Position numbers and translations under genes: made by a program. The notes beneath the pieces are model-generated. The model did no database searches. It worked only from the letters and a program-made list of their open reading frames with translations, and was not told the DNA's origin. 64,000 bases of DNA from Kiritimatiellia bacterium (lineage in GTDB: Bacteria; Verrucomicrobiota; Kiritimatiellia; RFP12; UBA1067): the NCBI GenBank assembly GCA_016296065.1, contig JAEDKA010000008.1, positions 10,180 through 74,179 on the forward strand, written 5' to 3'. Positions within the stretch are counted from its first letter, which is position 1; each line of letters opens with the position of its first letter. This document shows positions 60-64,000 of this stretch, one piece after another.

Positions 60-68
60 ATTATACCA
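60..68 (-). promoter_or_regulatory. Extended -10 TGGTATAAT, 8 nt before ATG 51
   Basis: Read directly from the sequence. Confidence 0.55.
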
Positions 69-173
69 TTTCTGCGGCCATCGCGCCGAAGGCGGTTGGC
101 ATCAAGGACTGAGCTGGCCCGCTCGCCCGACCTGGCGGAGCCGTTCGGCCCCGTGACGACATTGGAAACTATG

Positions 174-2342
174 TCATTTCCGGCGGAAGACCGGAATACG
201 GTCGATTGGCGTCGCGACGCGAATGACGCGTCCGCCCTCAAGGCGCTTGCCCGTGAAGAAGTCCTCCCACTCGCCCGCAGGGAGATACACGTCCATCTCC
301 TCGACGTCCGCCGTCACCGGGCAGACGAGCAATTCGCGTCCGAACATGTACTCTGTCTCGAAGCCGGCGGGAGCGTCGAAAAGCGGAGTCATCATCGGCG
401 CGTTTGCGCGCACCGCCTCGTCCGCAGTCGCCTTTACGTAGGGCCTGATGCGCTCCCTGAGGCGCACCTGCTCGGACAGCAGACGCTCCGTCTTCGCGCC
501 AAAGCGCGAGAATGTGTTGTCCGTCTTGTGTCCGTGCACGCGCTGGATCGGACAGAACGTCGCCCACTGCACCCAGCGCACGAAGCGCTTCTGGAATTCG
601 GCGTTCGTATACTGGTCGTGCGGACGGAAGAACCCGCCGCCGTCAGTCGTCCAATATGGGACACCCGCCATCGACGCGCCGAGCCCGGCGATCACCTGAG
701 TGCGGAGATCCTTCCACTCGCTCCCGACGTCGCCGCTCCACACGACGCACGCGGTGCGGCACTGCCCGGCGAACGCGCAGCGCGTGAGCACAAGCGGCTC
801 CCTGCCCATCTCGCGCTGCTTGCGGTCCGCAGCGAGGTTTACGAGGAGCGGATACACGTTGCGGAACTCGTCGCCGCTGCCGAGAGTCCAGGTGCGCCCG
901 TGGAGATCGTCGTTCTCGGGCTCCACGGCGTCAAGCCACCACGCGTCGATTCCGACTGATGCAAGATTGCGCTCCACCCACCTCCAGAAGAGGTCCACCG
1001 ACTCCTTCTTCGAGTAGTCGATCCAGCTCGTTCCGGGGATGAATCCGCCGATAGCCTCGACCTCCTTCGTGAACTGGCACTCGCCCGTCGCCTTCGGCCA
1101 GACGCTGAGCATGACACGTACCCCCGCGTCGTGGCATTCGTCCAGCATCGCCTTCGGGTCCGGATAGCGCGCCTTGCTCCACTCCATCGAGTTCCACGTG
1201 TCGTCAAGCCACCAGAACCAGTCCTGGACGAGCACAGAAAGCGGCAGATCGTTTTTCTTGAAGTAGTGCAGCGCGTCGAGAAGCTCCTGCTGCGTCGCGA
1301 AGCGCTCCTGGCAGTGCCAGTAGCCCCACGCCCAGTCGGGAAGCGCGGCAGTTCCGCCGCAGTCGCGCCTGAACGCGGCGACGGCCTTCGTCGGCTCGAA
1401 CGGATACACGACGTAGTCCGTGCCCCTGGCGAAGTCGCTCACGAAGCGCGACTCTCCGCGGTCGGGGCGGATTCCGAGCGTCGGGGAGTCGCGCGAATCC
1501 GCGAGGACACGCACGGTGTGGCGTCCCTTCGCGAGGCGCAGGCGGAAGCCTACGGTCGGCGGAAGCCACACGTTGCGGTTAGAGACGATGCGCTTCCCGT
1601 CAATGTCAACGACCTGCTGTCGCGACATCTTCTCCCCGCTGTCGAGGTCGAACGCGTATTCCCCGTCGGACGGAACGTCGAACGTCCCGACGAGCGACAC
1701 TTCAACACGCTCCTCCTTCGCGTTGCCGGCGTTCGTCGTGACGTCTACGGAGCGTCCCTCCGCCGCGTTACCCTCGCGCTCGAGCTTCACGAAATCCGTG
1801 CATGGGTTGAAGTCGACGCGCGCGTACGAATGCCAGTGGAGTCCCCAGCCGCGCGTCGAGACCATGAACGGAACAGACGCCTGGGTGTTGACCTGGACCA
1901 GACGGCGCGGAAGGTTGCGGATATCGAGCGCGCCGTCCTGGAACTGCCCGAGTCCGTACAGCCTCTCGCCCTCCGGAGAATCGAACGCCACGCCCTTCTC
2001 GAAGACCTCCCTTTCGGAGAGGATCGTCTTCCCTCCGGACACGAATGCCACAAGCCCGGTCTTCTTGTCGACATTCGCGACGAGCCCTCCGCCGGACACC
2101 GAAACGACATCGCCCTTCTCCTCGCGCTTCAACTGCGCAGAGAACCCGTCGGTGAACACAAGCTCTGGGCTTTCGGCCTCGCCGCGCGTCACGCGCATTC
2201 CGCCTGCCGCAGACATGGAGAATGACACCGCACCGCGCGCAGTCTCGACACGGACCGGCTCCGCGTCGGCAATTGTCGCTCCGCAGAAGAATGCGGATGC
2301 CGTGATCGTCAGAAGATGCAGTTTACTTGTAATGGTTTGCAT
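174..2342 (-). CDS. Glycoside hydrolase family 31 (alpha-glucosidase/alpha-xylosidase type), secreted
   Basis: 722 aa. N-terminal signal peptide. GH31-type catalytic region (GIDAWWLDAVEPEND; WSGDVGSEW). Confidence 0.8.
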   Translation of the reverse strand: MQTITSKLHLLTITASAFFCGATIADAEPVRVETARGAVSFSMSAAGGMRVTRGEAESPELVFTDGFSAQLKREEKGDVVSVSGGGLVANVDKKTGLVAFVSGGKTILSEREVFEKGVAFDSPEGERLYGLGQFQDGALDIRNLPRRLVQVNTQASVPFMVSTRGWGLHWHSYARVDFNPCTDFVKLEREGNAAEGRSVDVTTNAGNAKEERVEVSLVGTFDVPSDGEYAFDLDSGEKMSRQQVVDIDGKRIVSNRNVWLPPTVGFRLRLAKGRHTVRVLADSRDSPTLGIRPDRGESRFVSDFARGTDYVVYPFEPTKAVAAFRRDCGGTAALPDWAWGYWHCQERFATQQELLDALHYFKKNDLPLSVLVQDWFWWLDDTWNSMEWSKARYPDPKAMLDECHDAGVRVMLSVWPKATGECQFTKEVEAIGGFIPGTSWIDYSKKESVDLFWRWVERNLASVGIDAWWLDAVEPENDDLHGRTWTLGSGDEFRNVYPLLVNLAADRKQREMGREPLVLTRCAFAGQCRTACVVWSGDVGSEWKDLRTQVIAGLGASMAGVPYWTTDGGGFFRPHDQYTNAEFQKRFVRWVQWATFCPIQRVHGHKTDNTFSRFGAKTERLLSEQVRLRERIRPYVKATADEAVRANAPMMTPLFDAPAGFETEYMFGRELLVCPVTADVEEMDVYLPAGEWEDFFTGKRLEGGRVIRVATPIDRIPVFRRK

Positions 2343-2385
2343 GGCTTATATATCGTGATATCGGAGTTTATGGCCTTCTGAAACA

Positions 2386-2394
2386 ATTGTACCA
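2386..2394 (-). promoter_or_regulatory. Extended -10 TGGTACAAT, 43 nt before the GH31 ATG
   Basis: Read directly from the sequence. Confidence 0.45.
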
Positions 2395-2459
2395 TTTCCC
2401 CATTGCTACGCCTACCCCCCTGAGCGTGGGGGGAGTAGGAAGCGAGTGCAAACGGGCAA

Positions 2460-5400
2460 TCAGCGGATTGCTAATTCGAAGATGGAGATGCCGTATGGAG
2501 TGTTCCGTTTGAGGCCGACAATTCGCAGGCGCCGCGCCTTTACCGCCGGCCAGGACAGCATCTCGAGCTTGCCCTCGGGCTTCGGCTTCTCCGCCACGCG
2601 GCGCCATGTCGCGCCGTCATCCGAAACCTCTACGACATAATGCTCGGCACGCGCGTTCTCCCAGTCGATTTCGACCTTCGAAACCGTGCGTTCCTTCCCG
2701 AAGTCGAAGCATATCCACTCTCCGTCACGGTGCCTGCTCGACCAGCGCGTCTTCATGTCGCCGTCAGCGGCATATGCGGCGAGGAGTCCTCCGTTCTCCT
2801 CCCCTGACGCCGTTATCGCCGCGAGCCGGGCGAGATTGACCTCCCCGATCGCGCACGCCTCGATGCGAGATTCCGCGGACATCCCGCCGAACTCCGTGCG
2901 GAGCACATACGTGCCCTTCGCCAGCGGGATGAAGATTCCGCCCTTCGCCGTCTTGTAGTCCTTGCCTGCCACGGCGGGCTTGCCCGACGGCGCGGTAACG
3001 GATGTCTTGCTGCCCTTGAGGGACATCTTTCCTCCGAACTGGTCTTCGCAGGAGACGGACATCTTGACGCCTTCACCCACGATCGCCGAAATGTTCGCCG
3101 GCGAGTACGCAAGCTTCCTCGCAACAAGCGCCTCCTCGACGGGAAGACGGCGGGAAACGGAAAGTCCATTTGCCTTCGCCTCCACGGTGGCAAAACCGTT
3201 CCCGCGCGGCGTGAACTCATCGCCGTCGAACTCGCCGTCCGAGCTGGACCATTCCGCCTTGCAAGGCGTGAACTTGCCGCCGCGTCTGACCCTCGCGGAC
3301 AGCCTGCACGGCTCGCCCTCCTTGAGCACGGTCTTCTCGGACTCAATCACAATGTCTTGAGAAACCTTGTCCGCGGGAGCGTGAAAATCGAACTTCGGCA
3401 CTCCGGCGCTCTTCAGGCCCTGGACGGTAAGGCAGTGCGGAGCGGCGTCGATCTCTCCGACGCTTTTCCCGTCCGCAGCAAAGAACCTGACTTTGCGCGG
3501 CCTGTCGCCGCAGTTGTAGGCCATGAGGGTGCGCTTTCCGTTCTTTACGAACGCCCTCGCGCACGGATAGTCGGCGCGCACGCCGAAATCGAGCTCGCCC
3601 CAGGCGATGTGCGAATGCGTCGCCCAGTACGTCATGTGCGCAGTGTCGGCGTTCATCGCCGCGTTCATCTTCTTCGCGCGGAGATTGTCGAACACCTCGG
3701 CGGCCTGCGCGGGATCGTGCCTCTGGAGATAGGACAGCAGCACGTTGCCGAGCGACTCGTTCCCGACTGGCGGCGTCTCGTGTCCGTCGCGCGTGCGGCC
3801 CTTCTCGAACCATCCGCCGATCTCCTTCGTCTTCCACATCGTCTCCCAGTCCCACTTCGCGAACTTCAGGTCCTCGCTCAGGTAGTCTAGCGCAGGCGTG
3901 TTGGGAAGCCACTGGATCGAATGCATCCACACGGGATCGCCGCTGAAGTACGTCCACCAGCCTACGCCGTGACAGGTGAGGTTGGAGTTGTACGGATGCT
4001 TGTACTTCGTGTAGTCGATGTTCTCGCGGTCGCGGTCGAACCAGTACTCGGCCGTGGCGCGCGACTCGGAAACATAGCCGAAGATGCCGGCGTCGCGCAT
4101 CGCGTCGTCACCCAGGGCGAGCCCGAGCAGATAGAGTCCGCCCCAGCCCTGCATCGCCTCGCTGGACGACTCCTGTCCGTTCCCCGCGCCGTCGCCGACT
4201 CCGCCGGCGAAGGAGTGTCCCGCCCACGGATCGAACGTGCGGAAAAGAGGGAATCGCTTCTCGGTCCTGTCCCAGTTCGCATAGTCCTTCGCGATCATCG
4301 TGAGCATCGAACCGAACTTCTTCCTGAAATCGTCGTCGACCATGCACAGCAGCGCGCCGGAGTAGGTGAAGTATCCGTAGTGGAAATGGTGGTCGTTGAA
4401 CGCGTCTGAATCGTAGCTCGTGTCTTCTCCGACGAGTCCGCCCCATTTCGGAACATACGAGAAGTAGAAGCGCTGCTCGCCCGGCGTCCACGTCAGCCAG
4501 TCCTCGAACTTCGCGCGCAGCTTCGCGTGCGCGTCGCGGAACGACTTTTCGTCACCCGTCTCCCGCGCCGCCATCATGGCGAACGCCATCTGGAGAAGCC
4601 CCTTGCCGCCCCAGTACGTGTCGCCTCCGAACGAACCACGGTTGGCGTAGTCGGATATGAGGTCCATGAAAAGCGCCGCGTCGTATTTCTCCGATCCCCT
4701 TGCCTCGGGCGCCGCCCAGTACGGAAGCATCCCGGGGAAGTCGTACGCGACCGAAAGCGAATTGCCCGCCGCCACTCGCTGTTTCCCGCGCGGAGTGTTC
4801 CAGACAAGACCGTCCACTGTTTTGAATCCGGGATGCGTCCGCTTGAGATGGTGCGGCTGGAAGCCCTGTAGCGCGACGGGGTTCTTTTCCTTCCCCGCAA
4901 GGTCCTCGGTCTCGACATTCCACGTCGTCGTCAGAACGGCCTTCGGCTCGTCGTACTTCCAGTCGACGCGCGTGCTTCTCACGACGGCGCGCGCATAGGG
5001 CGCGAGCTTGTCGAACGCGTCGGCGGACGGCAGGACGGCGACGGCGATCCACTGCGCGTCCTTCGGTCCGCCGCGCCAGACGCCGTAAGATTCTTCGCCG
5101 ACGGATATCACCTCGCCGCCTCCGCGCTTTTCGCGCTTCACGTCTGCGCCCGCGTCGTTCTCGACGGACACCGCGAGCTCGACGCCCTTCGCCTCGACCC
5201 AGGTGAACGGCGAGCCGTGCACAAGCGTCGTCCTGATTTCCCGCCCGCCGTCATCAGCAAGCAACATCTCGACATCCCAGTCGTGCCAGTCGTCGACGAG
5301 CGTCGCCTCGGGCGCAAAATTCCCAGCCGCTCCGACGACGACGGCGGAGCGCTCCTTCATCTCCGTACCGTTGTCGATCCAGCGCGACGGATTCGCCACG

Positions 5401-5720: not shown

Positions 5721-5755
5721 GACTTGCCGATTTCTGTCGGTGGACGGAGTCTGGT

Positions 5756-7804: not shown

Positions 7805-7833
7805 CGTCGTTATCCCCGTTTTTCGGACTTAGA

Positions 7834-8736: not shown

Positions 8737-8770
8737 GTGACTTTCTCCTTTGGTGTTTTTGTCGGGGGGA

Positions 8771-9637: not shown

Positions 9638-9705
9638 AATCTGGACAATATTATCCTAAAATCCGCCACGAATGTCAAGCGGACGGACCATGCCAGATCA
9701 TTCCG

Positions 9706-11358: not shown

Positions 11359-11364
11359 GCCGCA

Positions 11365-11373
11365 ATTATACCA
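11365..11373 (-). promoter_or_regulatory. Extended -10 TGGTATAAT, 6 nt before the GH97 ATG 11358
   Basis: Read directly from the sequence. Confidence 0.6.
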
Positions 11374-11393
11374 AAGCTGCGCAGAGATGGGCA

Positions 11394-11411
11394 CTCCCAC
11401 TTACGGGGGAT
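11394..11411. promoter_or_regulatory. CTCCC-N8-GGGAT variant, 23 nt upstream of the GH97 -10 box
   Basis: ctcccacttacgggggat. Confidence 0.45.
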
Positions 11412-11452
11412 AAGATTTCCCTGGGATGCGAGGCGACAGCCAAGGCAAGCGA

Positions 11453-14432: not shown

Positions 14433-14441
14433 ATTATAGCA
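14433..14441 (-). promoter_or_regulatory. Extended -10 TGCTATAAT, 10 nt before the FHA ATG 14422
   Basis: Read directly from the sequence. Confidence 0.6.
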
Positions 14442-16712: not shown

Positions 16713-16721
16713 ATTATACCA
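16713..16721 (-). promoter_or_regulatory. Extended -10 TGGTATAAT, 8 nt before the cysS ATG
   Basis: Read directly from the sequence. Confidence 0.6.
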
Positions 16722-18800: not shown

Positions 18801-18809
18801 ATTATACCA
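18801..18809 (-). promoter_or_regulatory. Extended -10 TGGTATAAT, 36 nt before the M20 ATG (leader carries AAGGA)
   Basis: Read directly from the sequence. Confidence 0.5.
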
Positions 18810-19372: not shown

Positions 19373-20440
19373 TCACTTTGCGGCGCCGCGCTCCGGGAGA
19401 TTGAACTCGCAGAGGACGGTCGTGCCCGTCGGCACGGTCGACTTGATGTCGAACACGTCTGCGACGCGCTTGGAGTTGGAAAGCCCCATTCCGGCGCCGA
19501 AGCCCATGGAGCGTATCCAGTCGTTCGCGGTGGAGGTCCCGTCCCGTAGCGCCCACTCCACGTCCTTGATTCCAGGCCCCTTGTCCTTCGCTATGACCGT
19601 CGCCTTGTGGCTGTCGAGGATGAAGGTTATGGACCCCCCGAGGGAATGGATGCAGATGTTGATCTCCAGCTCATACGCGGCGACCGCTATGCGGCGGATG
19701 ATCTTCTTCTCGACCCCCGCGTCGCCCAGCATCTTCTTGATCGCGTTCGCAGCCTTGCCGGCGTTAGTGAGGTCGTTCCGCACGACTACGAACTGCCGCA
19801 TCGAGTAGTACGGCAGGACGGGCTCGCTCTTGCTCGACTCCTGGCCATGCTCCGCGCCCTGCTGTTCCGTCCCCGGCGCGCCCTCGAGCCTTGCGAGCTC
19901 ATTCGTGAGCTCGCGCATCAGCACTCGCGTGACGTCGCGCTGCGAGACAATGCCCACGAGATCGCGCTCCTTGTTCAGCACCGGGAAGCGCCCGAAGATG
20001 TAGTTCTCGAAGTACTTGAGCGCGAAGGCGAGCGGCATGTCCTCCTCCAGGACGACGAGGTTCGTCGCCATGTGCTTCTGGCACTGCTCGCCGATCCACC
20101 CGCCCTCGAGAGCGAGGATGATGTCGTTTATCGAGACGATTCCGAAGAGGCGCTTGCCCTCCACCACCGGGACGCCGGAGATGTGGTTGCGCTTCATCAG
20201 GTTCTGCGCGAAATGCATCGTGTCTGTCCTGACGACCGAGATGATGTCGTGGTCGCGCATGACGTCCTTCACGCGCAGGCGCTGCAGGAGCTCCATGATG
20301 ACGAGCGGCTCGCCCTGCCCGCCCGAGCCCGGCAGGCCCGGACCAGACACGCGCTTGACGTGCTTGCGCTCGTGCGCGGCCATAATCTGGTCGTCGCTGA
20401 GCTTCTCGCCGCCTGTCAGGATCGTCGGACGGTACTCCAT
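19373..20440 (-). CDS. CBS-pair + GHKL ATPase (RsbW-like anti-sigma-type Ser/Thr kinase) fusion
   Basis: Two CBS motifs (VKDVM...GVPVV; ...GRFPVL...GIVSQRDV). Followed by AAYELEINICIH, DKGPGI and GFGAGMGL boxes. Start MEYRP at 20440 overlaps the upstream stop (ATGA). Confidence 0.7.
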   Translation of the reverse strand: MEYRPTILTGGEKLSDDQIMAAHERKHVKRVSGPGLPGSGGQGEPLVIMELLQRLRVKDVMRDHDIISVVRTDTMHFAQNLMKRNHISGVPVVEGKRLFGIVSINDIILALEGGWIGEQCQKHMATNLVVLEEDMPLAFALKYFENYIFGRFPVLNKERDLVGIVSQRDVTRVLMRELTNELARLEGAPGTEQQGAEHGQESSKSEPVLPYYSMRQFVVVRNDLTNAGKAANAIKKMLGDAGVEKKIIRRIAVAAYELEINICIHSLGGSITFILDSHKATVIAKDKGPGIKDVEWALRDGTSTANDWIRSMGFGAGMGLSNSKRVADVFDIKSTVPTGTTVLCEFNLPERGAAK

Positions 20441-20787: not shown

Positions 20788-20796
20788 AGTATAGCA
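20788..20796 (-). promoter_or_regulatory. Extended -10 TGCTATACT, 9 nt before the DRTGG ATG 20778
   Basis: Read directly from the sequence. Back-to-back with the plus-strand box at 20812-20820. Confidence 0.55.
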
Positions 20797-20811: not shown

Positions 20812-20820
20812 TGCTATAAT
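20812..20820 (+). promoter_or_regulatory. Extended -10 TGCTATAAT, 7 nt before the PHP GTG 20828
   Basis: Read directly from the sequence. Confidence 0.55.
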
Positions 20821-21594: not shown

Positions 21595-21652
21595 TCCAAA
21601 CCTCCAAACCTCCAAACTTCCAAACTTCCAACCCTCCAACCCTCCACCAACC
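21595..21652 (+). repeat. G-free tandem 8-mers (TCCAAACC x2, TCCAAACT x2, TCCAACCC x2, then TCCACCAACC) filling the PHP-DRTGG spacer up to the ATG
   Basis: Read directly from the sequence. Confidence 0.8.
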
Positions 21653-24017: not shown

Positions 24018-24026
24018 ATTATATCA
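24018..24026 (-). promoter_or_regulatory. Extended -10 TGATATAAT whose TGA is the greA stop codon. 50-nt leader with GAGGAGG SD before the dksA-like ATG.
   Basis: Read directly from the sequence. Confidence 0.5.
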
Positions 24027-26148: not shown

Positions 26149-26157
26149 ATTATACCA
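26149..26157 (-). promoter_or_regulatory. Extended -10 TGGTATAAT, 28 nt before the greA ATG
   Basis: Read directly from the sequence. Confidence 0.5.
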
Positions 26158-28673: not shown

Positions 28674-28682
28674 ATTATACTA
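28674..28682 (-). promoter_or_regulatory. -10 TAGTATAAT, 30 nt before the SSS transporter ATG (AGGAG SD in leader)
   Basis: Read directly from the sequence. Confidence 0.45.
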
Positions 28683-33392: not shown

Positions 33393-33401
33393 ATTATACC
33401 A
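33393..33401 (-). promoter_or_regulatory. Extended -10 TGGTATAAT, 6 nt before the metF ATG
   Basis: Read directly from the sequence. Confidence 0.6.
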
Positions 33402-39436: not shown

Positions 39437-39530
39437 TTATCTGATGCTGTTCTGCTTTCTTCTTGAAACGACACTCCAACACAACGCACTGCCGGTCCTT
39501 TTCCACCGACAGCGGATGCATTGACTGAAT

Positions 39531-39539
39531 ATTATATCA
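39531..39539 (-). promoter_or_regulatory. Extended -10 TGATATAAT, 94 nt before the rseP ATG
   Basis: Read directly from the sequence. Confidence 0.4.
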
Positions 39540-41081: not shown

Positions 41082-41090
41082 ATTATACCA
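41082..41090 (-). promoter_or_regulatory. Extended -10 TGGTATAAT, 7 nt before the dnaB ATG 41074
   Basis: Read directly from the sequence. Confidence 0.6.
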
Positions 41091-41118
41091 AACGCCCCCA
41101 AGTCGACGCGCCGCAAAA

Positions 41119-41158
41119 TGTCTACAGATGTCTAAAGGTTGTCGACATGTTGTCTACA
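41119..41158. promoter_or_regulatory. Four direct repeats TGTC(T/G)A(C/A)A starting at 41119, 41129, 41140 and 41151 (10-11 bp phasing), upstream of the dnaB -10 box
   Basis: Read directly from the sequence. Confidence 0.5.
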
Positions 41159-41191
41159 GCCCCTGCGCCAAATTGCGCCGCCGCAAAGCCA

Positions 41192-42181: not shown

Positions 42182-42190
42182 ATTATAGCA
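42182..42190 (-). promoter_or_regulatory. Extended -10 TGCTATAAT, 9 nt before the GH43 ATG 42172
   Basis: Read directly from the sequence. Confidence 0.6.
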
Positions 42191-44722: not shown

Positions 44723-44731
44723 ATTATACCA
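44723..44731 (-). promoter_or_regulatory. Extended -10 TGGTATAAT, 6 nt before the GH43 ATG 44716
   Basis: Read directly from the sequence. Confidence 0.6.
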
Positions 44732-46436: not shown

Positions 46437-46442
46437 ATTATA
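46437..46442 (-). promoter_or_regulatory. -10 TATAAT, 6 nt before the GH39 ATG 46430
   Basis: Read directly from the sequence. Confidence 0.55.
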
Positions 46443-46464
46443 AGGCATAAGCCACCGCCCCGCC

Positions 46465-46482
46465 ATCCCCCCATGAAGGGAT
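46465..46482. promoter_or_regulatory. ATCCC-N8-GGGAT inverted repeat, 22 nt upstream of the GH39 -10 box
   Basis: atccccccatgaagggat. Confidence 0.55.
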
Positions 46483-48353: not shown

Positions 48354-48362
48354 ATTATATCA
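48354..48362 (-). promoter_or_regulatory. Extended -10 TGATATAAT whose TGA is the lyase stop codon. Promoter of the sensor/regulator pair.
   Basis: Read directly from the sequence. Confidence 0.5.
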
Positions 48363-50852: not shown

Positions 50853-50861
50853 AGTATATCA
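50853..50861 (-). promoter_or_regulatory. Extended -10 TGATATACT, 6 nt before the lyase ATG 50846
   Basis: Read directly from the sequence. Confidence 0.6.
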
Positions 50862-50880: not shown

Positions 50881-50898
50881 ATCCCCCCGTGGGGGGAG
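50881..50898. promoter_or_regulatory. ATCCC-N8-GGGAG inverted repeat, 22 nt upstream of the lyase -10 box
   Basis: atccccccgtggggggag. Confidence 0.55.
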
Positions 50899-53904: not shown

Positions 53905-53946
53905 AAGTTCACGAAGCTATTTTACACCCGGCTGTGCGTCTGCGCC

Positions 53947-53964
53947 ATCCCTTGATGGGGGGAT
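53947..53964. promoter_or_regulatory. ATCCC-N8-GGGAT inverted repeat, 22 nt upstream of the TAAAAT -10 box of the PATR protein gene
   Basis: atcccttgatggggggat. Confidence 0.55.
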
Positions 53965-53987
53965 GGTGCATCCCCCGCAAGACAGAT

Positions 53988-56483: not shown

Positions 56484-56525
56484 AAGTTTACGCCACTATT
56501 TTACACCCGGCTTTGCAGTTGTGCC

Positions 56526-56543
56526 ATCCCTTGATGGGGGGAG
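56526..56543. promoter_or_regulatory. ATCCC-N8-GGGAG inverted repeat, 22 nt upstream of the TAAAAT -10 box of the GH2 gene
   Basis: atcccttgatggggggag. Confidence 0.55.
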
Positions 56544-56545
56544 AC

Positions 56546-56573
56546 GGCGGTTTCATCGAAACCGCCCTACCAT
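56546..56573. repeat. 28-nt element GGCGGTTTCATCGAAACCGCCCTACCAT, copy 2, abutting the hipA stop codon
   Basis: Identical to 51531-51558. Confidence 0.8.
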
Positions 56574-57784
56574 TATTCTTTCAAACCCAGCGCCGCCTTC
56601 ACCTCTCGTATCACGCGCGGCGCGGTGCCGAGCGCGAAGCGGTCGGCGACCTGCAAGAGGTCGTCGTCGGTTATCTTCGACTGCTTGCCGTTGACGGAGA
56701 GCTGGTGTCGCCCGCCATGCGCTGACCACGGGTCGTCAGACGGGAATCGCGAGCCTGTCAGGTCGTATGCCGGCGCAAGCCGCCAGACACCATCCTCTTT
56801 CATCATGAACGAAAAGTTCTTCGTGTGGTCGTCGCATTCGTCTATCGCGACATTGAACACAATCCTCCGAAACGCCTGTTCAAGCGCCTCGTAGCCAAGA
56901 TGCAGCGCGTCAACCGTCGCCAGATACTGCTCGTATGTCCTGAATTCCAGCGGCACGGACATCGGAAAGTGAGCCATGGCCGAAAGCGTCTGGACATGAA
57001 AGTGCCGCGAGCCGTCCCTGTCAAAGCGCTTTGTCATGAAATGGCCGAGTCCGTCCAGTTCGTACAGCGTCGACTCGCACATGTCGACCCCGGCATCCCG
57101 CGCCTTTTGATACATCGCGTATTCAGTCGGGCCGCGCCACGGATATTCCCGCGGCGTAAACTTGATTATCCAGTGCTCAAACCCTTCCGGAAGATCACGG
57201 TCGCCGAAAAGAAACTGACCTGTCTCGCGATTCCAGCCGACGAGGGCCTTCGCCTGCGCACCTCCGACCGAAGAGCCTATCCTTATGATCGCCCTGAGAG
57301 CCTCGTCGCCGTCCAGATCTGCAAGCTCGCCGTTGGCAGCTTTCCTGGCCGCTTCCACAAGGTTGCGCATCTCAAATGCCGCCGGCCGCCCGCCAGGGCC
57401 TCGGTCAGGCTCGTACGTCAACGCGCCAACGGCCCGCCGGCCTATGTAGGCAAGCCTGTCCAGCGCCGTGATCTCGGAGCGGACATATCCCTTCTCCGTC
57501 AACCAACGATCGACGAGACCTCTGCCGAACGCATCCGGCAGCGAATCGGCAAATGCCGGCGGAAGTCCCTCGTACTCGCTGCGCGGCAGATCGGCAAACG
57601 CATACGGCTCTCTGCGAAGCGGCATCATCAGCGGCGCAATCTCAAGACCGGACTTGAGAAACTTGCGGTCGTACTGAAAAGCATACGTCTCGCCGCGCGA
57701 GTCTACGGGAACGATGATGCCGACACGCTGTCCCCATAGCGACACCATCACGCGACCGACATGCTTGAATTCAGACATGGACAA
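56573..57784 (-). CDS. hipA: HipA-family serine/threonine kinase toxin
   Basis: 403 aa. N-terminal coupling domain. GSSVGGAQAK P-loop-like motif and DDHTKNFSF catalytic motif. Confidence 0.85.
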   Translation of the reverse strand: MSMSEFKHVGRVMVSLWGQRVGIIVPVDSRGETYAFQYDRKFLKSGLEIAPLMMPLRREPYAFADLPRSEYEGLPPAFADSLPDAFGRGLVDRWLTEKGYVRSEITALDRLAYIGRRAVGALTYEPDRGPGGRPAAFEMRNLVEAARKAANGELADLDGDEALRAIIRIGSSVGGAQAKALVGWNRETGQFLFGDRDLPEGFEHWIIKFTPREYPWRGPTEYAMYQKARDAGVDMCESTLYELDGLGHFMTKRFDRDGSRHFHVQTLSAMAHFPMSVPLEFRTYEQYLATVDALHLGYEALEQAFRRIVFNVAIDECDDHTKNFSFMMKEDGVWRLAPAYDLTGSRFPSDDPWSAHGGRHQLSVNGKQSKITDDDLLQVADRFALGTAPRVIREVKAALGLKE

Positions 57785-58088
57785 CTCCTTTCCCCTTGCG
57801 ACCGGCGCGCTGGCGTCTGGATGCGCCGGACGCCCTTCGCTCGAAAAGCGAATCGTCTATCTCGGGCGGCGCCAATTCCATAAGCCAATCGGTCTTGCGC
57901 AATGTACGACAACAGGATAGAAGAGAAAGCGTAGACGAATTCTCGCCGGCCTCAAGATTGCGTACCGCTTTCAGAGAGATTCCGCTTCTCTCCGCCAATG
58001 TCTGCTGCGATAGATTATCCGCCAATCTTAACGCCCTCAGATTGCTGCCAAGCGTCTTCAGCATTTCATCTCGAGTCTTATATATCAT
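57771..58088 (-). CDS. hipB: XRE-family HTH antitoxin (HipB-like)
   Basis: LSQQTLAERSGISLKAVRNLEAG HTH. 14-nt overlap with hipA. Palindromic operators upstream. Confidence 0.8.
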   Translation of the reverse strand: MIYKTRDEMLKTLGSNLRALRLADNLSQQTLAERSGISLKAVRNLEAGENSSTLSLLSCCRTLRKTDWLMELAPPEIDDSLFERRASGASRRQRAGRKGKGVVHV

Positions 58089-58119
58089 AACATGCCTTAT
58101 AAGGGTGAAAATCGGCTAT

Positions 58120-58128
58120 ATTGTAGCA
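58120..58128 (-). promoter_or_regulatory. Extended -10 TGCTACAAT of hipBA, flanked by palindromes CCTTATAAGG (58095-58104) and CCCTATAAGG (58136-58145)
   Basis: Read directly from the sequence. Confidence 0.6.
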
Positions 58129-58137
58129 CAACATTCC

Positions 58138-58887
58138 CTATAAGGTCAATACTACCTCTGCCACATTCGCGGAAAAAGCGGGTATGATGAGGCTGGAAGC
58201 CGTGAACTCAAGTTCGCGTATCGCAACGGTGTCTGGCGATTCCATTGTGTTCTTCGCATCAAGCGCGATTTCGACGCTCTCCCCTTTTTCAAGACGCCTG
58301 TTGACGTCGATAGTTTCATCGGCGGTAGCGAGAGGATAGCGCGCAATCTCGCGATAGAAGTTGAACTTTGCGTCACGGCCGCAACCGGCATCATGACTGG
58401 GGGAAGCGGCGTCTCGCCGCTTTTCACAACAAGGGAGACTTCCTTTTTGACGAAGCGGCGGGACGCCGCTTCCCCCAGTCAAAGCTCCTCCGTCAATCAA
58501 ATCCACCCGACTTGAGACTTCCACTCTCCACACGAGCTGCTTCATTGACTCCTCGGGTTTGATCCAGGGTCCGCCGCAGGCGGAATATCCAGGCGAGTTG
58601 TGGAGCGAAAGCTCCATCCCGAGTCGCTTCGCCTCGCGGCTCGCCCATGCGACGCAGTCCTTCCACTCCGCGCTCGCGTAGTCCGCCTTGCCGCGCTTCG
58701 CTCCGATGCCGACGTCGAAGATCATCGCCGCCTGGATCCCGCCCGCTTTCATGTACTCCAGGTCGGCGGTGATGCCATCTTTGGAGATATTGCCGTTCAT
58801 CCAGTGCCAGTAGCAGTCGGTCATGACTTCCGAAAACGAAGTCATGGAGAGCGCCACACCGCAGACAACCGCATATAATTTCTTCAT
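58138..58887 (-). pseudogene. Truncated GH106-like (rhamnosidase-family TIM-barrel) glycosidase N-terminal fragment carrying an in-frame 88-bp hairpin-repeat insertion
   Basis: YWHWMNGNISKDGITADLEYMKAGGI...SPGYSACGGPWIKPEESMKQLVW matches N-termini of ~1000-aa enzymes, but the ORF stops after 249 aa at the hipB operator. Repeat at 58394-58481. Confidence 0.5.
58394..58481. repeat. Second 88-bp copy of the same inverted-repeat element (29-nt arms, 30-nt spacer), inside the GH106-like ORF
   Basis: Read directly from the sequence. Confidence 0.8.
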
Positions 58888-58893
58888 GCGACC

Positions 58894-58899
58894 ATTATA
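58894..58899 (-). promoter_or_regulatory. -10 TATAAT, 6 nt before ATG 58887 (GH106-like fragment)
   Basis: Read directly from the sequence. Confidence 0.55.
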
Positions 58900-58921
58900 C
58901 ATCAGGGGCAGGACGCCGCAA

Positions 58922-58939
58922 ATCCCCCTATGAAGGGAT
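58922..58939. promoter_or_regulatory. ATCCC-N8-GGGAT inverted repeat, 22 nt upstream of the -10 box of the GH106-like fragment
   Basis: atccccctatgaagggat. Confidence 0.55.
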
Positions 58940-58992
58940 TATCCGCACCGACAGGCGATTAGATGCCTACGGCACTTGACGATGAACTATCC

Positions 58993-61119
58993 TTAAAGCT
59001 CCACAAGCCCGTCACCGGCTTTGCCTTCGACGCGCTTCATGGTTCCGTCCGGAAGCTTCAGAGCAGCGGAGAAGTCGTCGCCCTGCCATTCAAGGTTTTC
59101 GAGAACGATTCCGCCGCGCAGCAGCAGTCCCTTTATCGAGCCCGACTTCCACTCCGTCGGCTTCGCCGGGAGAAAGCGCACATAGCCTTCCTCGGAATGG
59201 ACGAGCATTTCGGAGATGAGATACGGATATCCGCCGGAGATGTCGGTGTTGAAGCAGTTCTTCCAGTCGTGGCACGAGCCGCCGCCCCTGAGCCAGTTCT
59301 TTTCCGTGAGTAGCTTGAGGCACCGCGCCGCGCGCGCGGCATCGCCGATCTTGCACGCGGCGAGTCCGTTCTGCACGTACCCAAACGCCATCGTGCGCGA
59401 ACGGTTCTCATTGAAGTCCATGCGCGCGTCGATCGTCTTTCCGACGGCCGCGACGAGCGCGGCGTTCGTGAGGATCTCCGCCGGCGCGTCGTCGTAGAGT
59501 GCGTAGAGATGAGAGGCGTGGCGATGCTCGTTGTTGTCCGGCTGCCCCGGCGCGAGCCACTCGGCGAAGAATCCGTTTTCGCTAACCCGGTACGGCGTGA
59601 GGCGTGCGCGCAGCGCGGACCATTTGCCGCGATCCTCCGCGTCAACACCAAGCGCCTCCGCCGCGTGCGCGACCTCGCCGAGGAACTGCTTGGCGATGGC
59701 GACATCCATCGTCGCGTTTACCGCCGTCGGACGCTTCCCCCACGGCCAGTTCTCGGGCGAATAGGACGGATTGAACCCGAGCGTTCCGTCCGGCATTTCC
59801 TTAAGGACGTCCTCGTAGTACTGCGCGACTTCCTTCATGAGCGGATAGATGCGCTTCAGCCACGCAACATCGCGCGTGTGGCGGTATCCGTCGTAGAGAC
59901 GCGAGAGAAGCCACGCCGCGCCGCCGTGCCAGTAGACGTGCGGATAGTTCGCGTTCGAATCGGTCTCCACTCCTGAAACCGTAGTCTGCGCGGCGGCGCG
60001 GAATCCACGCGCGCCGAAGTGACGCCTCGCCGCGTCGCGCATTTCGGGAAGCCGCGCCTCGATCCACTTGAGAAGGCTTTCGTTGAACTCCGGCGTGTTG
60101 CCGCGGCAGAAGAAGGAAATCGCGCACGGAAGGTTCCCGTTCACGGTGAAGCTCGCGAACCAAGGCGCGCTCCAGGTTCCGGCCCACAGTCCCTGGAGGT
60201 TCGGCACGTGGTCGCCTCCAACGGAAGAAATGATGTTGTACCTTCCGGAATTGAAGTTGCGCACGATCTCCGCCGCGTTCGCCGGGCCTTCGAGAGCGAA
60301 CGACACACGGCCCATGAGCTCCTTCTGCTTTGCGGCGCTTTCTGCCAGAAGCGCATCATACCCCTTCTCCGCCGCAGCCGCAAGATGCGCCTCCATCGCC
60401 GCGCGATTGGAAGTCTGTCCCTTCAGCAGCGGTTCTATCGCCACATAAACCTCGGAAATCTTTGCGTCCTTTGCGTTCTTTGCGGCTAACAGCAAAACCT
60501 CATACCCCGCGAGCTTGTTCCACGGGTTCGCGTTCCTGAACTCGCAGCGATAGTAGTCAGGCTCCGAAACGATGCGGCAAATCCCCTTCGCGAACGCGGA
60601 AATATCCATCCTTCCTGAAGGCGCGATTCCGGCGAGCGCAAACGAGGCATCACCCTTCGTCTCGTCATTCACCTTGACGGCGATGATGTTCGCACCGCGC
60701 AGCGCGACGACGCGGCGCTCGTAGCGGCGTCCCTTGCCGTCCTTCGCAAGAACGATGCATTCGCCAGTATCGAAGTCCGTCCGACGCGAATATTCGACAG
60801 GCTTGCCGAACCGCATTGATATCTTGAGGTCGCACGCGGCCATGAATCCGTCGCGGTTGTTGTAGTCGCCTGGATTGCGGCGCGGATGATTGACGAGCGC
60901 GGGCGGCGTGTCGCCCGGTTCGGGAAGATACAGCTTGCAGTGGCTGAGATGGATCGCTTCATCTTCGATCCGCCCCTCGACCATTGCCCCGATCGTGCCG
61001 TTGCCGGTCAGCAGCGACTCCTGCCAGTTGGCGGCAGACGCGTGCTCGATCAATTCCGCGCCGCCAGACGCGCAAGCCACGACGGCCACAGCGCACAAAG
61101 CAAAGAATCTCGTTCTCAT
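58993..61119 (-). CDS. GH95-like (alpha/alpha)6 glycosidase (fucosidase/galactosidase family), secreted
   Basis: 708 aa. Signal peptide. NLQGLWAGTWSAPWFASFTVNGNL resembles the GH95 LQGIWN...PPW...NIN block. Confidence 0.5.
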   Translation of the reverse strand: MRTRFFALCAVAVVACASGGAELIEHASAANWQESLLTGNGTIGAMVEGRIEDEAIHLSHCKLYLPEPGDTPPALVNHPRRNPGDYNNRDGFMAACDLKISMRFGKPVEYSRRTDFDTGECIVLAKDGKGRRYERRVVALRGANIIAVKVNDETKGDASFALAGIAPSGRMDISAFAKGICRIVSEPDYYRCEFRNANPWNKLAGYEVLLLAAKNAKDAKISEVYVAIEPLLKGQTSNRAAMEAHLAAAAEKGYDALLAESAAKQKELMGRVSFALEGPANAAEIVRNFNSGRYNIISSVGGDHVPNLQGLWAGTWSAPWFASFTVNGNLPCAISFFCRGNTPEFNESLLKWIEARLPEMRDAARRHFGARGFRAAAQTTVSGVETDSNANYPHVYWHGGAAWLLSRLYDGYRHTRDVAWLKRIYPLMKEVAQYYEDVLKEMPDGTLGFNPSYSPENWPWGKRPTAVNATMDVAIAKQFLGEVAHAAEALGVDAEDRGKWSALRARLTPYRVSENGFFAEWLAPGQPDNNEHRHASHLYALYDDAPAEILTNAALVAAVGKTIDARMDFNENRSRTMAFGYVQNGLAACKIGDAARAARCLKLLTEKNWLRGGGSCHDWKNCFNTDISGGYPYLISEMLVHSEEGYVRFLPAKPTEWKSGSIKGLLLRGGIVLENLEWQGDDFSAALKLPDGTMKRVEGKAGDGLVEL

Positions 61120-61125
61120 GGCATG

Positions 61126-61134
61126 ATTCTACCA
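61126..61134 (-). promoter_or_regulatory. Extended -10 TGGTAGAAT, 6 nt before the GH95-like ATG 61119
   Basis: Read directly from the sequence. Confidence 0.6.
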
Positions 61135-61153
61135 CAAACCACCTGCGCACGCC

Positions 61154-61174
61154 ATCCCTCATCTGGGGGGGGAT
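61154..61174. promoter_or_regulatory. ATCCC-N11-GGGAT variant, proximal half-site 22 nt upstream of the GH95-like -10 box
   Basis: atccctcatctggggggggat. Confidence 0.45.
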
Positions 61175-61282
61175 AAGCCATGACTTTTTTCCGCCACGGC
61201 GTTCGTCAACTCGTCACGAACATTGCAGTAGTTACCGCACCGCACCGTAATCGTCACTTGCGCACCGATCGTCCGCGGCACA

Positions 61283-61924
61283 TCAGCCGCGGATCTGCTT
61301 CGCGAGCGCCGCCGCGTCGGACGCGAGCTTTTCGATCGCCGCCCAGTCTCCGGACGCGATTGCGTCCTTCGGGGCGATCCACGTTCCGCCGCAGCAAATG
61401 ATCTCCTTGACGGCGAGATAGTCCGCGACATTGGAAAGCTTCACGCCGCCCGTGGGCATGAACTTGACGCCCGTCCAGCGGAACGCACCAAGGAGGTCCT
61501 TGATGTACTTGACTCCTCCCGCGGACTCCGCAGGGAAGAACTTCACCATCTTGCATCCGAGCGCAAGCGCCTGGCTGAGTTCGCTCGCCGTCGCGATACC
61601 GGGGCAGAACGGAATCCCAAGCTCGTTCGCCGCCTTGACGATCGCAGGGTCGAAGCCGGGCGCAACGCACGCCTCCGCGCCCGCCTCCTTCGCGGCGACG
61701 AGCTGCTTCAGCGTGAGAACCGTGCCCGCAATGAGAATCGCGCCCGGAACCTCCGCCTTGATCTTCGCAATCGCCTCCGCCGCGCAGGAGGTGCGGAACG
61801 TCACCTCGAGAACGGGCAACCCGCCCTTCACGAGCGCGTTCGCAAGCGGAACGGCCTTGTCGATGTCTTCGATAACAATGACGGGGATGATTCCCGCGTC
61901 GCCAAGTGTCTTGATCATGTCCAT
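61283..61924 (-). CDS. eda: KDPG/KHG aldolase
   Basis: IIPVIVIEDIDKAVPLANALVKGGLPVLEVTFRT, FMPTGGV. 213 aa. Confidence 0.85.
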   Translation of the reverse strand: MDMIKTLGDAGIIPVIVIEDIDKAVPLANALVKGGLPVLEVTFRTSCAAEAIAKIKAEVPGAILIAGTVLTLKQLVAAKEAGAEACVAPGFDPAIVKAANELGIPFCPGIATASELSQALALGCKMVKFFPAESAGGVKYIKDLLGAFRWTGVKFMPTGGVKLSNVADYLAVKEIICCGGTWIAPKDAIASGDWAAIEKLASDAAALAKQIRG

Positions 61925-61936
61925 GATTTTCTGTCG

Positions 61937-61964
61937 TTAAAGGTTGAAGGTTAAAGGTTGAAGG
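61937..61964 (-). repeat. Two tandem 14-mers (CCTTCAACCTTTAA on the coding strand) between the kdgK stop and the eda start
   Basis: Read directly from the sequence. Confidence 0.8.
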
Positions 61965-63068
61965 TTAGCGGTCGACTCGCGCGGAGCCGCCGCCAACGAG
62001 CTTCTCGACGTCGGCCTTCGTCGCCATCGAGGTGTCACCGGGTGTCGTCATCGCGAGCGCACCGTGCGCGGCTCCGTAGTTGACGGCCTTCTCGGCGTCG
62101 TCGAACGTCATGAAGCCGTAGATGAGTCCAGACGCGAACGAGTCGCCTCCGCCTACGCGGTCGTAGATCTCGAGTCCCGGACGCTGAATCGACTGATGGA
62201 GCTCGCCCTTGTACCAGCAGATCGCAGACCAGTCATTGACCGTTGCGGACTTCACGGAGCGGAGCGTGGTCGCGACCGCCTTGAAGTTGGGATAGATGGA
62301 GACGGCCTTCTCGATCATCTTCCTGAAGCCGTCGATCGGGAGCGTCGTGAGGTTCTTGTCCACGCCTTCGACCTCGATTCCGAGCGCGGCGGTGAAGTCC
62401 TCCTCGTTGCCGATCATCACGTCGACGTACTTCGCGATCTCCTTGTTGACCTCCTGCGCCTTGGCCTGTCCGCCGATGGACTTCCACAGCGACGCGCGGT
62501 AGTTGAGGTCGTAGCTCGTGACCGTTCCGTGCTTCTTCGCAGCCTTGAGCGCCTCAATCACGACGTCCGCCGTCGTCTCGGAAAGCGCGGCGAATATGCC
62601 GCCGGTGTGGAACCACCTCACGCCCTCCTTGCCGAAAAGCTGCTCCCAGTCGACGTCGCCGGGCCTGAGCTGGCTCACCGCCGTAAGCCCGCGGTCCGCG
62701 CAGCTGCGCGCGCCGCGGCATCCGAATCCGCGCTCGACGAAGTTGAGCCCGTTGCGCACCGTGCGTCCGATTCCGTCGTACGGAACCCACTTCACGTGGC
62801 TCGTGTCCACTCCGCCCTGGAGCATGAAGTCCTCGACGAGGCGCCCGACCGGATTGTCGGCGAACGCAGTGACCGCCGTGGTCTTGAGTCCGAAGCAGCG
62901 GCGGAGTCCGCGCACGACGTTGTATTCGCCGCCGCCCTCCCACGCCCTGAACTCGCGGGCGGTGTGGATTCGCCCGTCGCCCGGATCGAGACGGAGCATG
63001 ATTTCACCAAGCGACGCCGCGTCCCACATGCAGGATCCGGCGGCTTTCACGTTCAGACTATCAGACAT
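61965..63068 (-). CDS. kdgK: 2-dehydro-3-deoxygluconokinase (PfkB family)
   Basis: PfkB motifs (GGGEYNV; DRVGGGDSFASG). Gene order with eda. Start moved to MSDSLNV. Confidence 0.75.
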   Translation of the reverse strand: MSDSLNVKAAGSCMWDAASLGEIMLRLDPGDGRIHTAREFRAWEGGGEYNVVRGLRRCFGLKTTAVTAFADNPVGRLVEDFMLQGGVDTSHVKWVPYDGIGRTVRNGLNFVERGFGCRGARSCADRGLTAVSQLRPGDVDWEQLFGKEGVRWFHTGGIFAALSETTADVVIEALKAAKKHGTVTSYDLNYRASLWKSIGGQAKAQEVNKEIAKYVDVMIGNEEDFTAALGIEVEGVDKNLTTLPIDGFRKMIEKAVSIYPNFKAVATTLRSVKSATVNDWSAICWYKGELHQSIQRPGLEIYDRVGGGDSFASGLIYGFMTFDDAEKAVNYGAAHGALAMTTPGDTSMATKADVEKLVGGGSARVDR

Positions 63069-63105
63069 TGCGTTTGACCTTTCTTTTTGAAATTCTTCGC
63101 CGCCT

Positions 63106-63114
63106 ATTCTATCA
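63106..63114 (-). promoter_or_regulatory. Extended -10 TGATAGAAT, 37 nt before the kdgK ATG 63068
   Basis: Read directly from the sequence. Confidence 0.5.
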
Positions 63115-63181
63115 CTTGCGTCGATGACACGATATAGCAAAGGTTATTCATATGATTGCACTATTCAATCAGAGGGATTTT

Positions 63182-63190
63182 TGGTAGAAT
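63182..63190 (+). promoter_or_regulatory. Extended -10 TGGTAGAAT, 7 nt before ATG 63198 (XylR-like)
   Basis: Read directly from the sequence. Confidence 0.55.
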
Positions 63191-63197
63191 ATCAGCA

Positions 63198-64000
63198 ATG
63201 GAAAACCACGAAGTACTTGTGCTGGTAAGCCCCGACCCGCCCCACAGGTTCCAGGGCATTGCGCGCCTCGCCGGCGAGCGTGGATGGCACATCCGCACAG
63301 AGAGCCGGCGCCTTCCGCCCTGGGACTGGGAGGGAGATGGCGTACTTGTGATGCTCGAGGACATTCCCGAACTGAAGCGCTTCGTCGCCAAGATGCGCCG
63401 GAAGCGCATTCCCGTCGTCGACCTTCTCGAAGACCAGCCGCAGGTCCCGCTCACGCGCGTCGCCGGGGACAACCCGGCCATCGGCAGGCTCGCGGCGGAG
63501 CACTTCAACGCGCGCGACTTCCGCCACGCCGCGTTCTTCTCCCTGCGCCACAACCACACGCACGACCTGCGAATCGAGGGCTTCAAGGAGGCATGGAAAG
63601 GCGAGCCGCCAAGGCTATGGCTGTGGCCGGACGAGGCGAACGGACAGATCGAGGACTGGAAGCGCATGGGCTCGTGGCTCGCGGGGAGGCTTGCGGACGC
63701 ACCGAAGCCGCTCGCCGTCTTCGCCTGGAACGACTACGACGCGACGCACGTCCTGAACGCCTGCAGAAAGCTAGAGCTCAAGGTCCCAGAGGATGTTGCG
63801 ATTCTCGGGGTGGACGACAACAAGGTGATCTGCGAGCACCAGAGCGTGAACCTCTCGTCGATCGCGCACGACCACGAGCGCGTCGGATACGCCGCAGCCG
63901 CGACACTCGAGCGGCTTATGTGCGGCGGAACCGTCGAGCGCCAGCTCGTGCGCGTCAGGCCGCGCGGCGTCGTGACGCGCGAATCGACGGACACCTTTGC
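63198..64000 (+). CDS. XylR-type regulator, N-terminal periplasmic-binding-protein-like sugar-sensing domain (partial, runs off the right edge). Not in the ORF track.
   Basis: My own translation MENHEVLVLVSPDPPHRFQGIA...GDNPAIGRLAAEHF...FAWNDYDATHVLNACRKLELKVPEDVAILGVDD... is open to the window end. ATG is 7 nt downstream of TGGTAGAAT. Confidence 0.6.
   Translation, partial: MENHEVLVLVSPDPPHRFQGIARLAGERGWHIRTESRRLPPWDWEGDGVLVMLEDIPELKRFVAKMRRKRIPVVDLLEDQPQVPLTRVAGDNPAIGRLAAEHFNARDFRHAAFFSLRHNHTHDLRIEGFKEAWKGEPPRLWLWPDEANGQIEDWKRMGSWLAGRLADAPKPLAVFAWNDYDATHVLNACRKLELKVPEDVAILGVDDNKVICEHQSVNLSSIAHDHERVGYAAAATLERLMCGGTVERQLVRVRPRGVVTRESTDTF

Follow-up and report, generated by a model that had tools for sequence, protein, structure and literature searches.

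Genes described as 'TA-led', in which a TANNNT motif about 10-12 nucleotides (nt) upstream of the start codon marks a leaderless messenger RNA, are widespread among bacteria and constitute more than 20% of the genes in the Actinobacteria and Deinococcus-Thermus (Zheng 2011, PMC3160421). In the genomes assigned to group C by GeneMarkS-2, a Pribnow box lies 6-8 nt from the first genes of operons, Shine-Dalgarno (SD) motifs are used elsewhere and 25-50% of the transcripts are leaderless (PMC6028130); the box of the group C genomes with a high guanine-cytosine (GC) content is a degenerate TANNNT (PMC3160421). The motif of the group B genomes precedes all genes, including those internal to operons, and so cannot be a promoter (PMC6028130). 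The Kiritimatiellae retain the CCUCC anti-SD, and 63% of their genes are SD-using according to a survey (PMC10783764). The present analysis concerns a stretch of 64,000 nt from a Kiritimatiellia bacterium (assembly GCA_016296065.1, contig JAEDKA010000008.1, positions 10,180 to 74,179; hereafter the window), in which extended -10 boxes of the type TGnTATAAT lie directly upstream of start codons. These boxes are very probably extended -10 promoters which fire at or next to the start codon and would give rise to leaderless mRNAs, the transcription start and the mode of translation being deduced here from sequence.

The window has a GC content of 62.5%, in a lineage of about 60% GC, and carries about 48 genes as annotated with Pfam, nearly all of them on the minus strand. 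These include housekeeping and other genes unrelated to carbohydrate-active enzymes (CAZymes), such as cysS, dnaB, metF, metH, ispG, rseP, miaA, lpxI, a greA-like and a dksA-like gene; secreted glycoside hydrolases and lyases (GH31, GH81, GH97, two GH43, GH39, GH2, GH95, a GH106 fragment and a heparinase-like lyase); and genes for regulators; rpoD lies outside the window. On the basis of DnaB, contig JAEEOY010000119 (Kiritimatiellae Tb.RUG.298) is a relative with 99% identity, and the source is a metagenome-assembled genome (MAG) of a rumen or gut member of the Kiritimatiellae, which belong to the Planctomycetes-Verrucomicrobia-Chlamydiae (PVC) superphylum. Eighty related loci (L001-L080; DnaB identity 68-99%, 1.12 Mb) were used for comparison and were pooled with the window to 1.18 Mb. 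Metagenome contigs bearing metF (L081 onward) constituted a second comparison set, independent of the dnaB loci.

The original prediction listed 15 boxes at distances of 6-10 nt from start codons, and each of them was found at its coordinates with the predicted gap between the hexamer and the start codon. They are listed below, followed by a further candidate.

60 to 68, minus strand: TGGTATAAT box, 8 nt to ATG 51; the gene runs off the window and no upstream in-frame start is possible.
11365 to 11373, minus strand: TGGTATAAT box, 6 nt to ATG 11358 of GH97, with a signal peptide.
14433 to 14441, minus strand: TGCTATAAT box, 10 nt to ATG 14422 of an FHA-domain protein.
16713 to 16721, minus strand: TGGTATAAT box, 8 nt to ATG 16704 of cysS; the frame is closed by a TAA within the box.
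20788 to 20796, minus strand: TGCTATACT box, 9 nt to ATG 20778 of a DRTGG protein; one half of a divergent back-to-back pair with a 49-nt spacer.
20812 to 20820, plus strand: TGCTATAAT box, 7 nt to GTG 20828 of a PHP-domain protein; second box of the divergent pair.
33393 to 33401, minus strand: TGGTATAAT box, 6 nt to ATG 33386 of metF.
41082 to 41090, minus strand: TGGTATAAT box, 7 nt to ATG 41074 of dnaB.
42182 to 42190, minus strand: TGCTATAAT box, 9 nt to ATG 42172 of the small GH43; conserved in L001.
44723 to 44731, minus strand: TGGTATAAT box, 6 nt to ATG 44716 of the large GH43.
46437 to 46445, minus strand: CCTTATAAT, a TATAAT without TGn, 6 nt to ATG 46430 of GH39.
50853 to 50861, minus strand: TGATATACT box, 6 nt to ATG 50846 of the heparinase II/III-like lyase.
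58894 to 58902, minus strand: ATGTATAAT, with TG abutting the hexamer and no TGn, 6 nt to ATG 58887 of the GH106 N-terminal fragment.
61126 to 61134, minus strand: TGGTAGAAT box, 6 nt to ATG 61119 of GH95.
63182 to 63190, plus strand: TGGTAGAAT box, 7 nt to ATG 63198 of an XylR/LacI-like regulator with a periplasmic-binding domain.
48354 to 48362, minus strand: TGATATAAT box that overlaps the stop codon of the lyase gene, 7 nt to GTG 48346 of a HisKA_3 kinase open reading frame (ORF); a candidate leaderless start.

The exact motif TGNTATAAT is present at nine of the 15 sites (51, 11358, 14422, 16704, 20828, 33386, 41074, 42172 and 44716), TGNTATACT at two (20778 and 50846) and TGGTAGAAT at another two (61119 and 63198). 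TG stands one base 5' of the -10 hexamer at 11 sites, a number that rises to 13 with the inclusion of TG variants of the hexamer; the description of all 15 as TGnTATAAT-type did not hold for GH39 and the GH106-like gene, which have TATAAT without a proper TGn. The list was correct and incomplete, since boxes including those at 48354-48362 and 39531-39539 had been missed. As predicted, the gaps of 6-10 nt leave no room for an SD, and the sole GGAGG, at GH39, ends 1 nt from the ATG. Box-type genes number 15-16 of the roughly 48 in the window, or about a third, and account for some 60% of the recognisable promoters; they span both housekeeping genes (cysS, metF and dnaB) and secreted CAZymes. The proportion of SD-using genes in the published survey leaves about a third without an SD, which fits this share.

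The start codons themselves were called without a trained gene finder, and those of the kinase (48346), the XylR-like regulator (63198) and the gene at ATG 51 have no independent N-terminal support. It could accordingly be argued that starts were miscalled, that the true ones lie downstream and that the boxes drive ordinary short leaders. This is very improbable, since the Pfam models begin at residue 2 (metF), 4 (PHP), 7 (dnaB) and 15 (cysS) of the proposed proteins, so close to the N-terminus that these four starts cannot be moved far, ortholog N-termini are conserved right up to the Met, and the signal peptides of the CAZymes follow directly after the proposed Met. At seven of the 15 sites (51, cysS, PHP, metF, small GH43, lyase and GH95), the proposed start is also the most upstream start codon that the frame allows. 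The ORF N-termini containing W-Y-N (LWYNCG, VWYNGG and MPYNGG) are the translated box, in agreement with the original prediction. If GTG 48346 is used, the kinase/NarL operon would have a leaderless GTG start of its own and ATG 48445, which implies an 86-nt overlap with the lyase gene, would not be the start.

The box is strongly enriched. The window has 14 exact copies of TGNTATAAT, where dinucleotide shuffles predict 0.10; no shuffle of 100 reached 14 and none exceeded one copy. All but one of the 14 belong to the minus strand, on which nearly all the genes lie. In the pooled 1.18 Mb, to which the following counts refer, TGNTATAAT occurs 221 times and five control motifs of the same composition 4-18 times each. 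The histogram of distances from the hexamer to the first start codon of an ORF of at least 100 codons, which had been suggested as a check, gave 2, 15, 37, 23, 13, 10 and 5 boxes at 5 to 11 nt. Thus, 98 of the 221 boxes are situated 6-10 nt from the start codon of a long ORF, with a mode at 7, as against 4 in the opposite-strand control, and TGNTATACT behaves in the same manner (26 of 54 at 6-10 nt). None of the control motifs shows a distance peak at 6-10 nt. A chance pairing of AT-rich hexamers with start codons in intergenic DNA has one clear instance in the window, the box ending at 39539 with ATG 39521 of a non-gene ORF. As a general explanation it is refuted by these enrichment and distance counts, and by the conservation of the arrangement across genomes, and its probability is practically negligible.

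Viewed from the side of the genes, a strong box precedes a candidate start by 5-10 nt in 144 (19%) of the 747 ORFs that have 200 codons or more, the corresponding figure for interior in-frame start-like codons being 3%. The start codons of these 144 box-type genes are ATG in 123 (85%), GTG in 16 and TTG in 5. The trait is present throughout the clade; the start-adjacent share of the boxes is 75% in the window and falls to 29% in that quarter of the loci which is furthest from it. Lys or Asn is encoded by the second codon in 54% of the box-type genes and 25% of the SD-type genes of the window and L001-L080 (10 of 15 in the window), and A is found at +5 in 72% and 38%, respectively, figures inflated by non-independent dnaB orthologs. 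Behind this bias may be a tendency to favour A-rich sequence downstream of a 5'-terminal AUG.

The architecture of the promoter was examined in the logo of the 144 sites. The rule by which these were selected fixed T-12, A-11 and T-7 and also admitted boxes without TG, so that T-17 (83%), T-15 (92%) and G-14 (93%) were not required by it. From -46 to -19 the information content is about 0.2 bit or less (maximum 0.23) and nothing is seen at -35. A scan of 39-52 kb for TTGACA-N16-18-TATAAT returned 4 sites against 2.9 expected, none of them at the box promoters. The promoter is therefore T(-17)/TG(-15/-14)/TATAAT without a -35 element. A pyrimidine stands at -1 in 75% of the box-type genes, and in 85% at gaps of 6-7 nt (C alone 75%), compared with 48% of the SD-type genes (Fisher p ~1e-9), a bias that matches the Y(-1)/R(+1) preference expected of transcription initiation. 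The leaderless reading is further supported by the distance between box and start codon, since it equals the usual distance between a -10 element and the transcription start site.

Boxes are also present in the window at greater distances from start codons.

18801 to 18809, minus strand: TGGTATAAT box, 36 nt to ATG 18764 of an M20 peptidase; AAGGA in the leader.
24018 to 24026, minus strand: TGATATAAT box, 50 nt to ATG 23967 of the dksA-like gene; GAGGAGG in the leader.
26149 to 26157, minus strand: TGGTATAAT box, 28 nt to ATG 26120 of the greA-like gene; AAGGAG in the leader.
28674 to 28682, minus strand: TAGTATAAT, no TGn, 30 nt to ATG 28643 of an SSS transporter; AGGAG in the leader.
39531 to 39539, minus strand: TGATATAAT box, 94 nt to ATG 39436 of rseP; ATG 39521 lies 9 nt downstream.
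53919 to 53927, minus strand: GTGTAAAAT box, 14 nt to ATG 53904 of a LamG/PATR protein; predicted leader of about 7 nt, no SD.
56498 to 56506, minus strand: GTGTAAAAT box, 14 nt to ATG 56483 of GH2; promoter region near-identical to that of 53904.

Motifs of the type GGAGG, AAGGAG or GAGGAGG precede the genes for NarL, metH, hipA, the outer-membrane-protein-like gene, CBS-HATPase, the greA-like and dksA-like genes, SSS and M20; the SDs expected at five of these (outer-membrane protein, NarL, dksA-like, greA and SSS) were all found, as GGAGG-, AAGGAG-, GAGGAGG- or AGGAG-type motifs. The non-box genes of the window have a GGAGG-type SD, behind a long leader or within an operon, or a stop/start overlap, and a minority of the genes have neither box nor SD. 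Four overlaps had been described as ATGA, which is correct for 32520 and 47087, while those at 20440 and 23182 are TGATG.

These arrangements bear on the nature of the box. It occupies the place where a ribosome-binding site would be, promoter and ribosome-binding motifs share a distance of 6-8 nt from the start according to GeneMarkS-2 (PMC6028130), and several box genes follow closely upon another gene of the same strand, the single stretch that was scanned having no detectable terminator. The box might therefore be a non-SD ribosome-binding or enhancer element, for example an AU-rich site bound by ribosomal protein S1, with the mRNAs being leadered from promoters further upstream as in the Bacteroidota-type group B. 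However, the identical motif also lies at distances of 28-94 nt from start codons, where a canonical SD intervenes, and at 28-50 nt upstream of genes with an AGGAG-type SD it behaves as a promoter and not as a ribosome-binding signal. The conserved positions, moreover, are those read by sigma-70 (T-12, A-11, T-7, TG at -15/-14 and T-17), beyond a general A/U richness, and the Y(-1)/R(+1) signature is present at the box genes. Weak mRNA structure near the start codon is universal and would not discriminate between the readings.

The orthologs of dnaB and metF argue in the same direction. The N-terminus is complete in 61 dnaB loci. In about 40 of these, 6-8 nt separate TGnTATA(A/C)T from the ATG, and the N-terminus following the box is conserved as M(N/Q/E)D(M/L)KTPP although the flanking sequence has wholly diverged. 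Among the dnaB loci without the box, most have coding sequence upstream and a GGAGG- or GGGAGG-like SD; operon-internal orthologs use the SD and not the box. In the case of metF, the box is 7-10 nt from the MKI... start in five relatives with 64-71% identity (L083-L086 and L089), whereas in L087 and L088 it is followed by a leader of 24-36 nt with AGGAG or GGAGG, and in most loci of the low-GC relatives with at most 60% identity this MKI... N-terminus is preceded by an AGGAG-type SD. The start-adjacent box is thus conserved across the Kiritimatiellae and excludes the SD where it occurs, and the pattern in these two genes indicates that box and SD are alternative solutions at the same start codon.

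Boxes also stand back to back between divergent genes, with 6-9 nt from each box to the start codon that it serves; the spacers of these pairs measure 49 nt (20778/20828), 55 nt (L012) and 60 nt (L031). Such spacers leave no room for leaders, and any upstream promoter would have to sit inside the coding sequence of the neighbour. With these observations taken together with the operon-internal orthologs, a translational role of the box in leadered mRNAs is considered improbable.

Under the leaderless promoter reading, RNA polymerase with the housekeeping sigma factor (sigma-70 type) would recognise the extended -10 boxes without a -35 element. At gaps of 6-8 nt, transcription would start on the first base (A or G) of the start codon or within about one base of it, and gaps of 9-10 nt could give leaders of 1-3 nt. 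The resulting mRNA would have neither a 5' untranslated region nor an SD, and its 5'-terminal AUG would be bound by a ribosome charged with initiator tRNA, along the leaderless route known from the Actinobacteria, Deinococcus and archaea. Boxes situated behind same-strand genes would act as internal promoters supplying translatable leaderless copies, probably alongside leadered read-through transcripts. The expectation of the original prediction that these mRNAs begin at or near the start codon is well supported, since it agrees with every sequence-based test made, including the distance peak, the ortholog geometry, the divergent pairs and the Y(-1)/R(+1) bias.

Several points weigh against this interpretation. 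No differential RNA sequencing data were found for the phylum. Many box genes are only 35-120 nt behind a same-strand gene, and the one stretch that was scanned showed no terminator between such genes, so that read-through transcripts with SD-less leaders probably exist as well; over 39-52 kb the search for terminators yielded nothing beyond the level of shuffles. The gaps of 9-10 nt at the FHA, DRTGG and small GH43 genes fit a leader of 1-3 nt better than a strict 5'-AUG, and four variant boxes (TAGAAT or lacking TGn) match more weakly. The dnaB orthologs in the pooled statistics are not independent observations. Finally, the closest metF relatives, L081 and L082 (87-88% identity), have neither box nor SD before the MKIS... 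start. The initiation signal of metF has evidently turned over between very close relatives. In L081, an in-frame stop is located 11 nt upstream of the metF start.

Further features were observed at individual promoters and leaders. An inverted repeat, (A)TCCCC-N3-8-GGGGAT, is common to the CAZyme promoters and occurs at the following positions.

61154 to 61174, minus strand: inverted repeat.
58922 to 58939, minus strand: inverted repeat.
56526 to 56542, minus strand: inverted repeat.
53947 to 53964, minus strand: inverted repeat.
50881 to 50897, minus strand: inverted repeat.
46465 to 46482, minus strand: inverted repeat.

Degenerate copies of this palindrome are present upstream of 44716, 42172, 11358 and 2342. 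Its last base is 22 nt upstream of the -10 hexamer, which puts its centre at about -43.5, in the position that a -35 element would occupy. The pattern has 13 matches against 4.2 expected, and none of the housekeeping leaderless promoters carries it. A search of the 80 related loci recovered the palindrome only in the window and the same-species contig L001, and so gave no comparative support. It looks like an operator or activator site of a CAZyme regulon, for which the nearby XylR-like and NarL-type regulators would be candidates.

The promoter regions of the LamG/PATR and GH2 genes (53905-53987 and 56484-56572) are near-identical, comprising the palindrome, GTGTAAAAT and a 14-nt gap ending in AACTT-ATG-AAAGG. 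These two genes are predicted to form a third class, neither strictly leaderless nor SD-led, with leaders of about 7 nt that lack an SD. The GH106-like gene (58138-58887) has only 249 codons, which match positions 6-112 of the 743-position GH106 model, and is followed by a hipA toxin gene (56573-57778) with a good AAGGAG SD; it appears to be truncated, for which the insertion of a hipBA module is a possible cause.

TGT(A/C)GACA is repeated four times, with a period of 11 nt, at 41118-41159 on the minus strand, upstream of the dnaB box. Similar repeats are present in the same place in relatives, as TGTAGACA in L002-L004 and four copies of TTGACAA in L070. A regulator or a DnaA-like protein may bind to this array.

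Scans with Rfam and for tRNAs gave no match in the entire window, and hence no riboswitch or small RNA that would account for the long leaders behind some of the boxes, for example the 94 nt before rseP. The rseP leader (39437-39539), itself without an Rfam match, contains a terminator-like hairpin at 39487-39514 and could represent an uncharacterised leader with a regulatory role, or a small RNA. ATG 39521 was considered as the start of a sixteenth leaderless gene and rejected, because its 308-amino-acid ORF has no Pfam match, overlaps rseP (Peptidase_M50) and probably arises by chance. Two intergenic spacers consist of G-free tandem repeats.

21595 to 21646, plus strand: (TCCAAACC) x6.5, filling the gap that separates the PHP gene from the second DRTGG gene.
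61936 to 61967, minus strand: (CTTCAACCTTTAAC) x2.3, filling the gap between kdgK and eda.

The genes downstream of both have neither SD nor box, and these spacers may act as unstructured C/A-rich translation enhancers.

Leaderless initiation is known and taxonomically patchy, and a case in the Kiritimatiellota would extend its map to the PVC superphylum while leaving the understanding of the mechanism unchanged. The main practical value would lie in better gene-start calls in CAZyme-rich MAGs. Gene finders trained on SDs extend ORFs through the box and corrupt the predictions of signal peptides and localisation for the CAZymes. If the Kiritimatiellia are leaderless-rich at large, as proposed below, gene-start calls and signal-peptide predictions for the CAZymes of these MAGs would be systematically biased. 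The clean consensus would also make the prediction of promoters and operons in these uncultured genomes unusually easy.

Among the known systems, the Bacteroidota of group B resemble the present lineage in having many SD-less genes and an A/T-rich signal shortly upstream of the start; unlike theirs, the box described here is absent from operon-internal genes, which use a strong GGAGG-type SD. Extended -10 ('TGn') promoters share the TG at -15/-14, the additional T at -17 and the dispensability of a -35 hexamer. The Kiritimatiellae consensus resembles the Gram-positive '-16 region' TRTG promoter motif that Voskuil and Chambliss reportedly described in Bacillus subtilis in 1998. The difference is that in this Gram-negative PVC bacterium the architecture appears to be the rule and is coupled to putative leaderless starts.

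The closest likeness is to the TA-led or group C organisms (Mycobacterium tuberculosis, Streptomyces and Deinococcus deserti), in which the Pribnow box likewise lies 6-8 nt from the starts of operon-first genes that lack an SD and the remaining genes carry one (PMC3160421; PMC6028130; 10.1101/2022.07.25.500264). Their genomes are also GC-rich, 25-50% of their transcripts are leaderless and AUG predominates as the start codon, as does ATG here. All the sequence-level features that define group C are present here. Our literature search found no link of leaderless mRNA to the Kiritimatiellota, Lentisphaerota, Verrucomicrobiota or Planctomycetota beyond the general SD survey, the supplementary lists of GeneMarkS-2 being outside its scope, so that a PVC genome may already be listed there under group C. 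The groups named in the main text of those papers are mainly the Actinobacteria and Deinococcus-Thermus, to which Zheng 2011 adds the Aquificae, Chloroflexi and Firmicutes; no PVC group is among them. The arrangement is thus known in other bacteria, and what appears new is the phylum, Kiritimatiellota. A wider proposal, towards which we lean somewhat, is that the Kiritimatiellia constitute a third major leaderless-rich bacterial lineage beside the Actinobacteria and Deinococcus-Thermus. Their housekeeping promoters would be T-N-TG-N-TATAAT without a -35 element; in some gut and rumen species most promoters, including those of secreted polysaccharide-degrading enzymes, would fire at the start codon, and at these enzyme genes a palindromic ATCCCC-N-GGGGAT operator would replace the -35 element. 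In the high-GC genomes of group C the box is reduced to a degenerate TANNNT, whereas the Kiritimatiellae lineage displays the full T-N-TG-N-TATAAT consensus.

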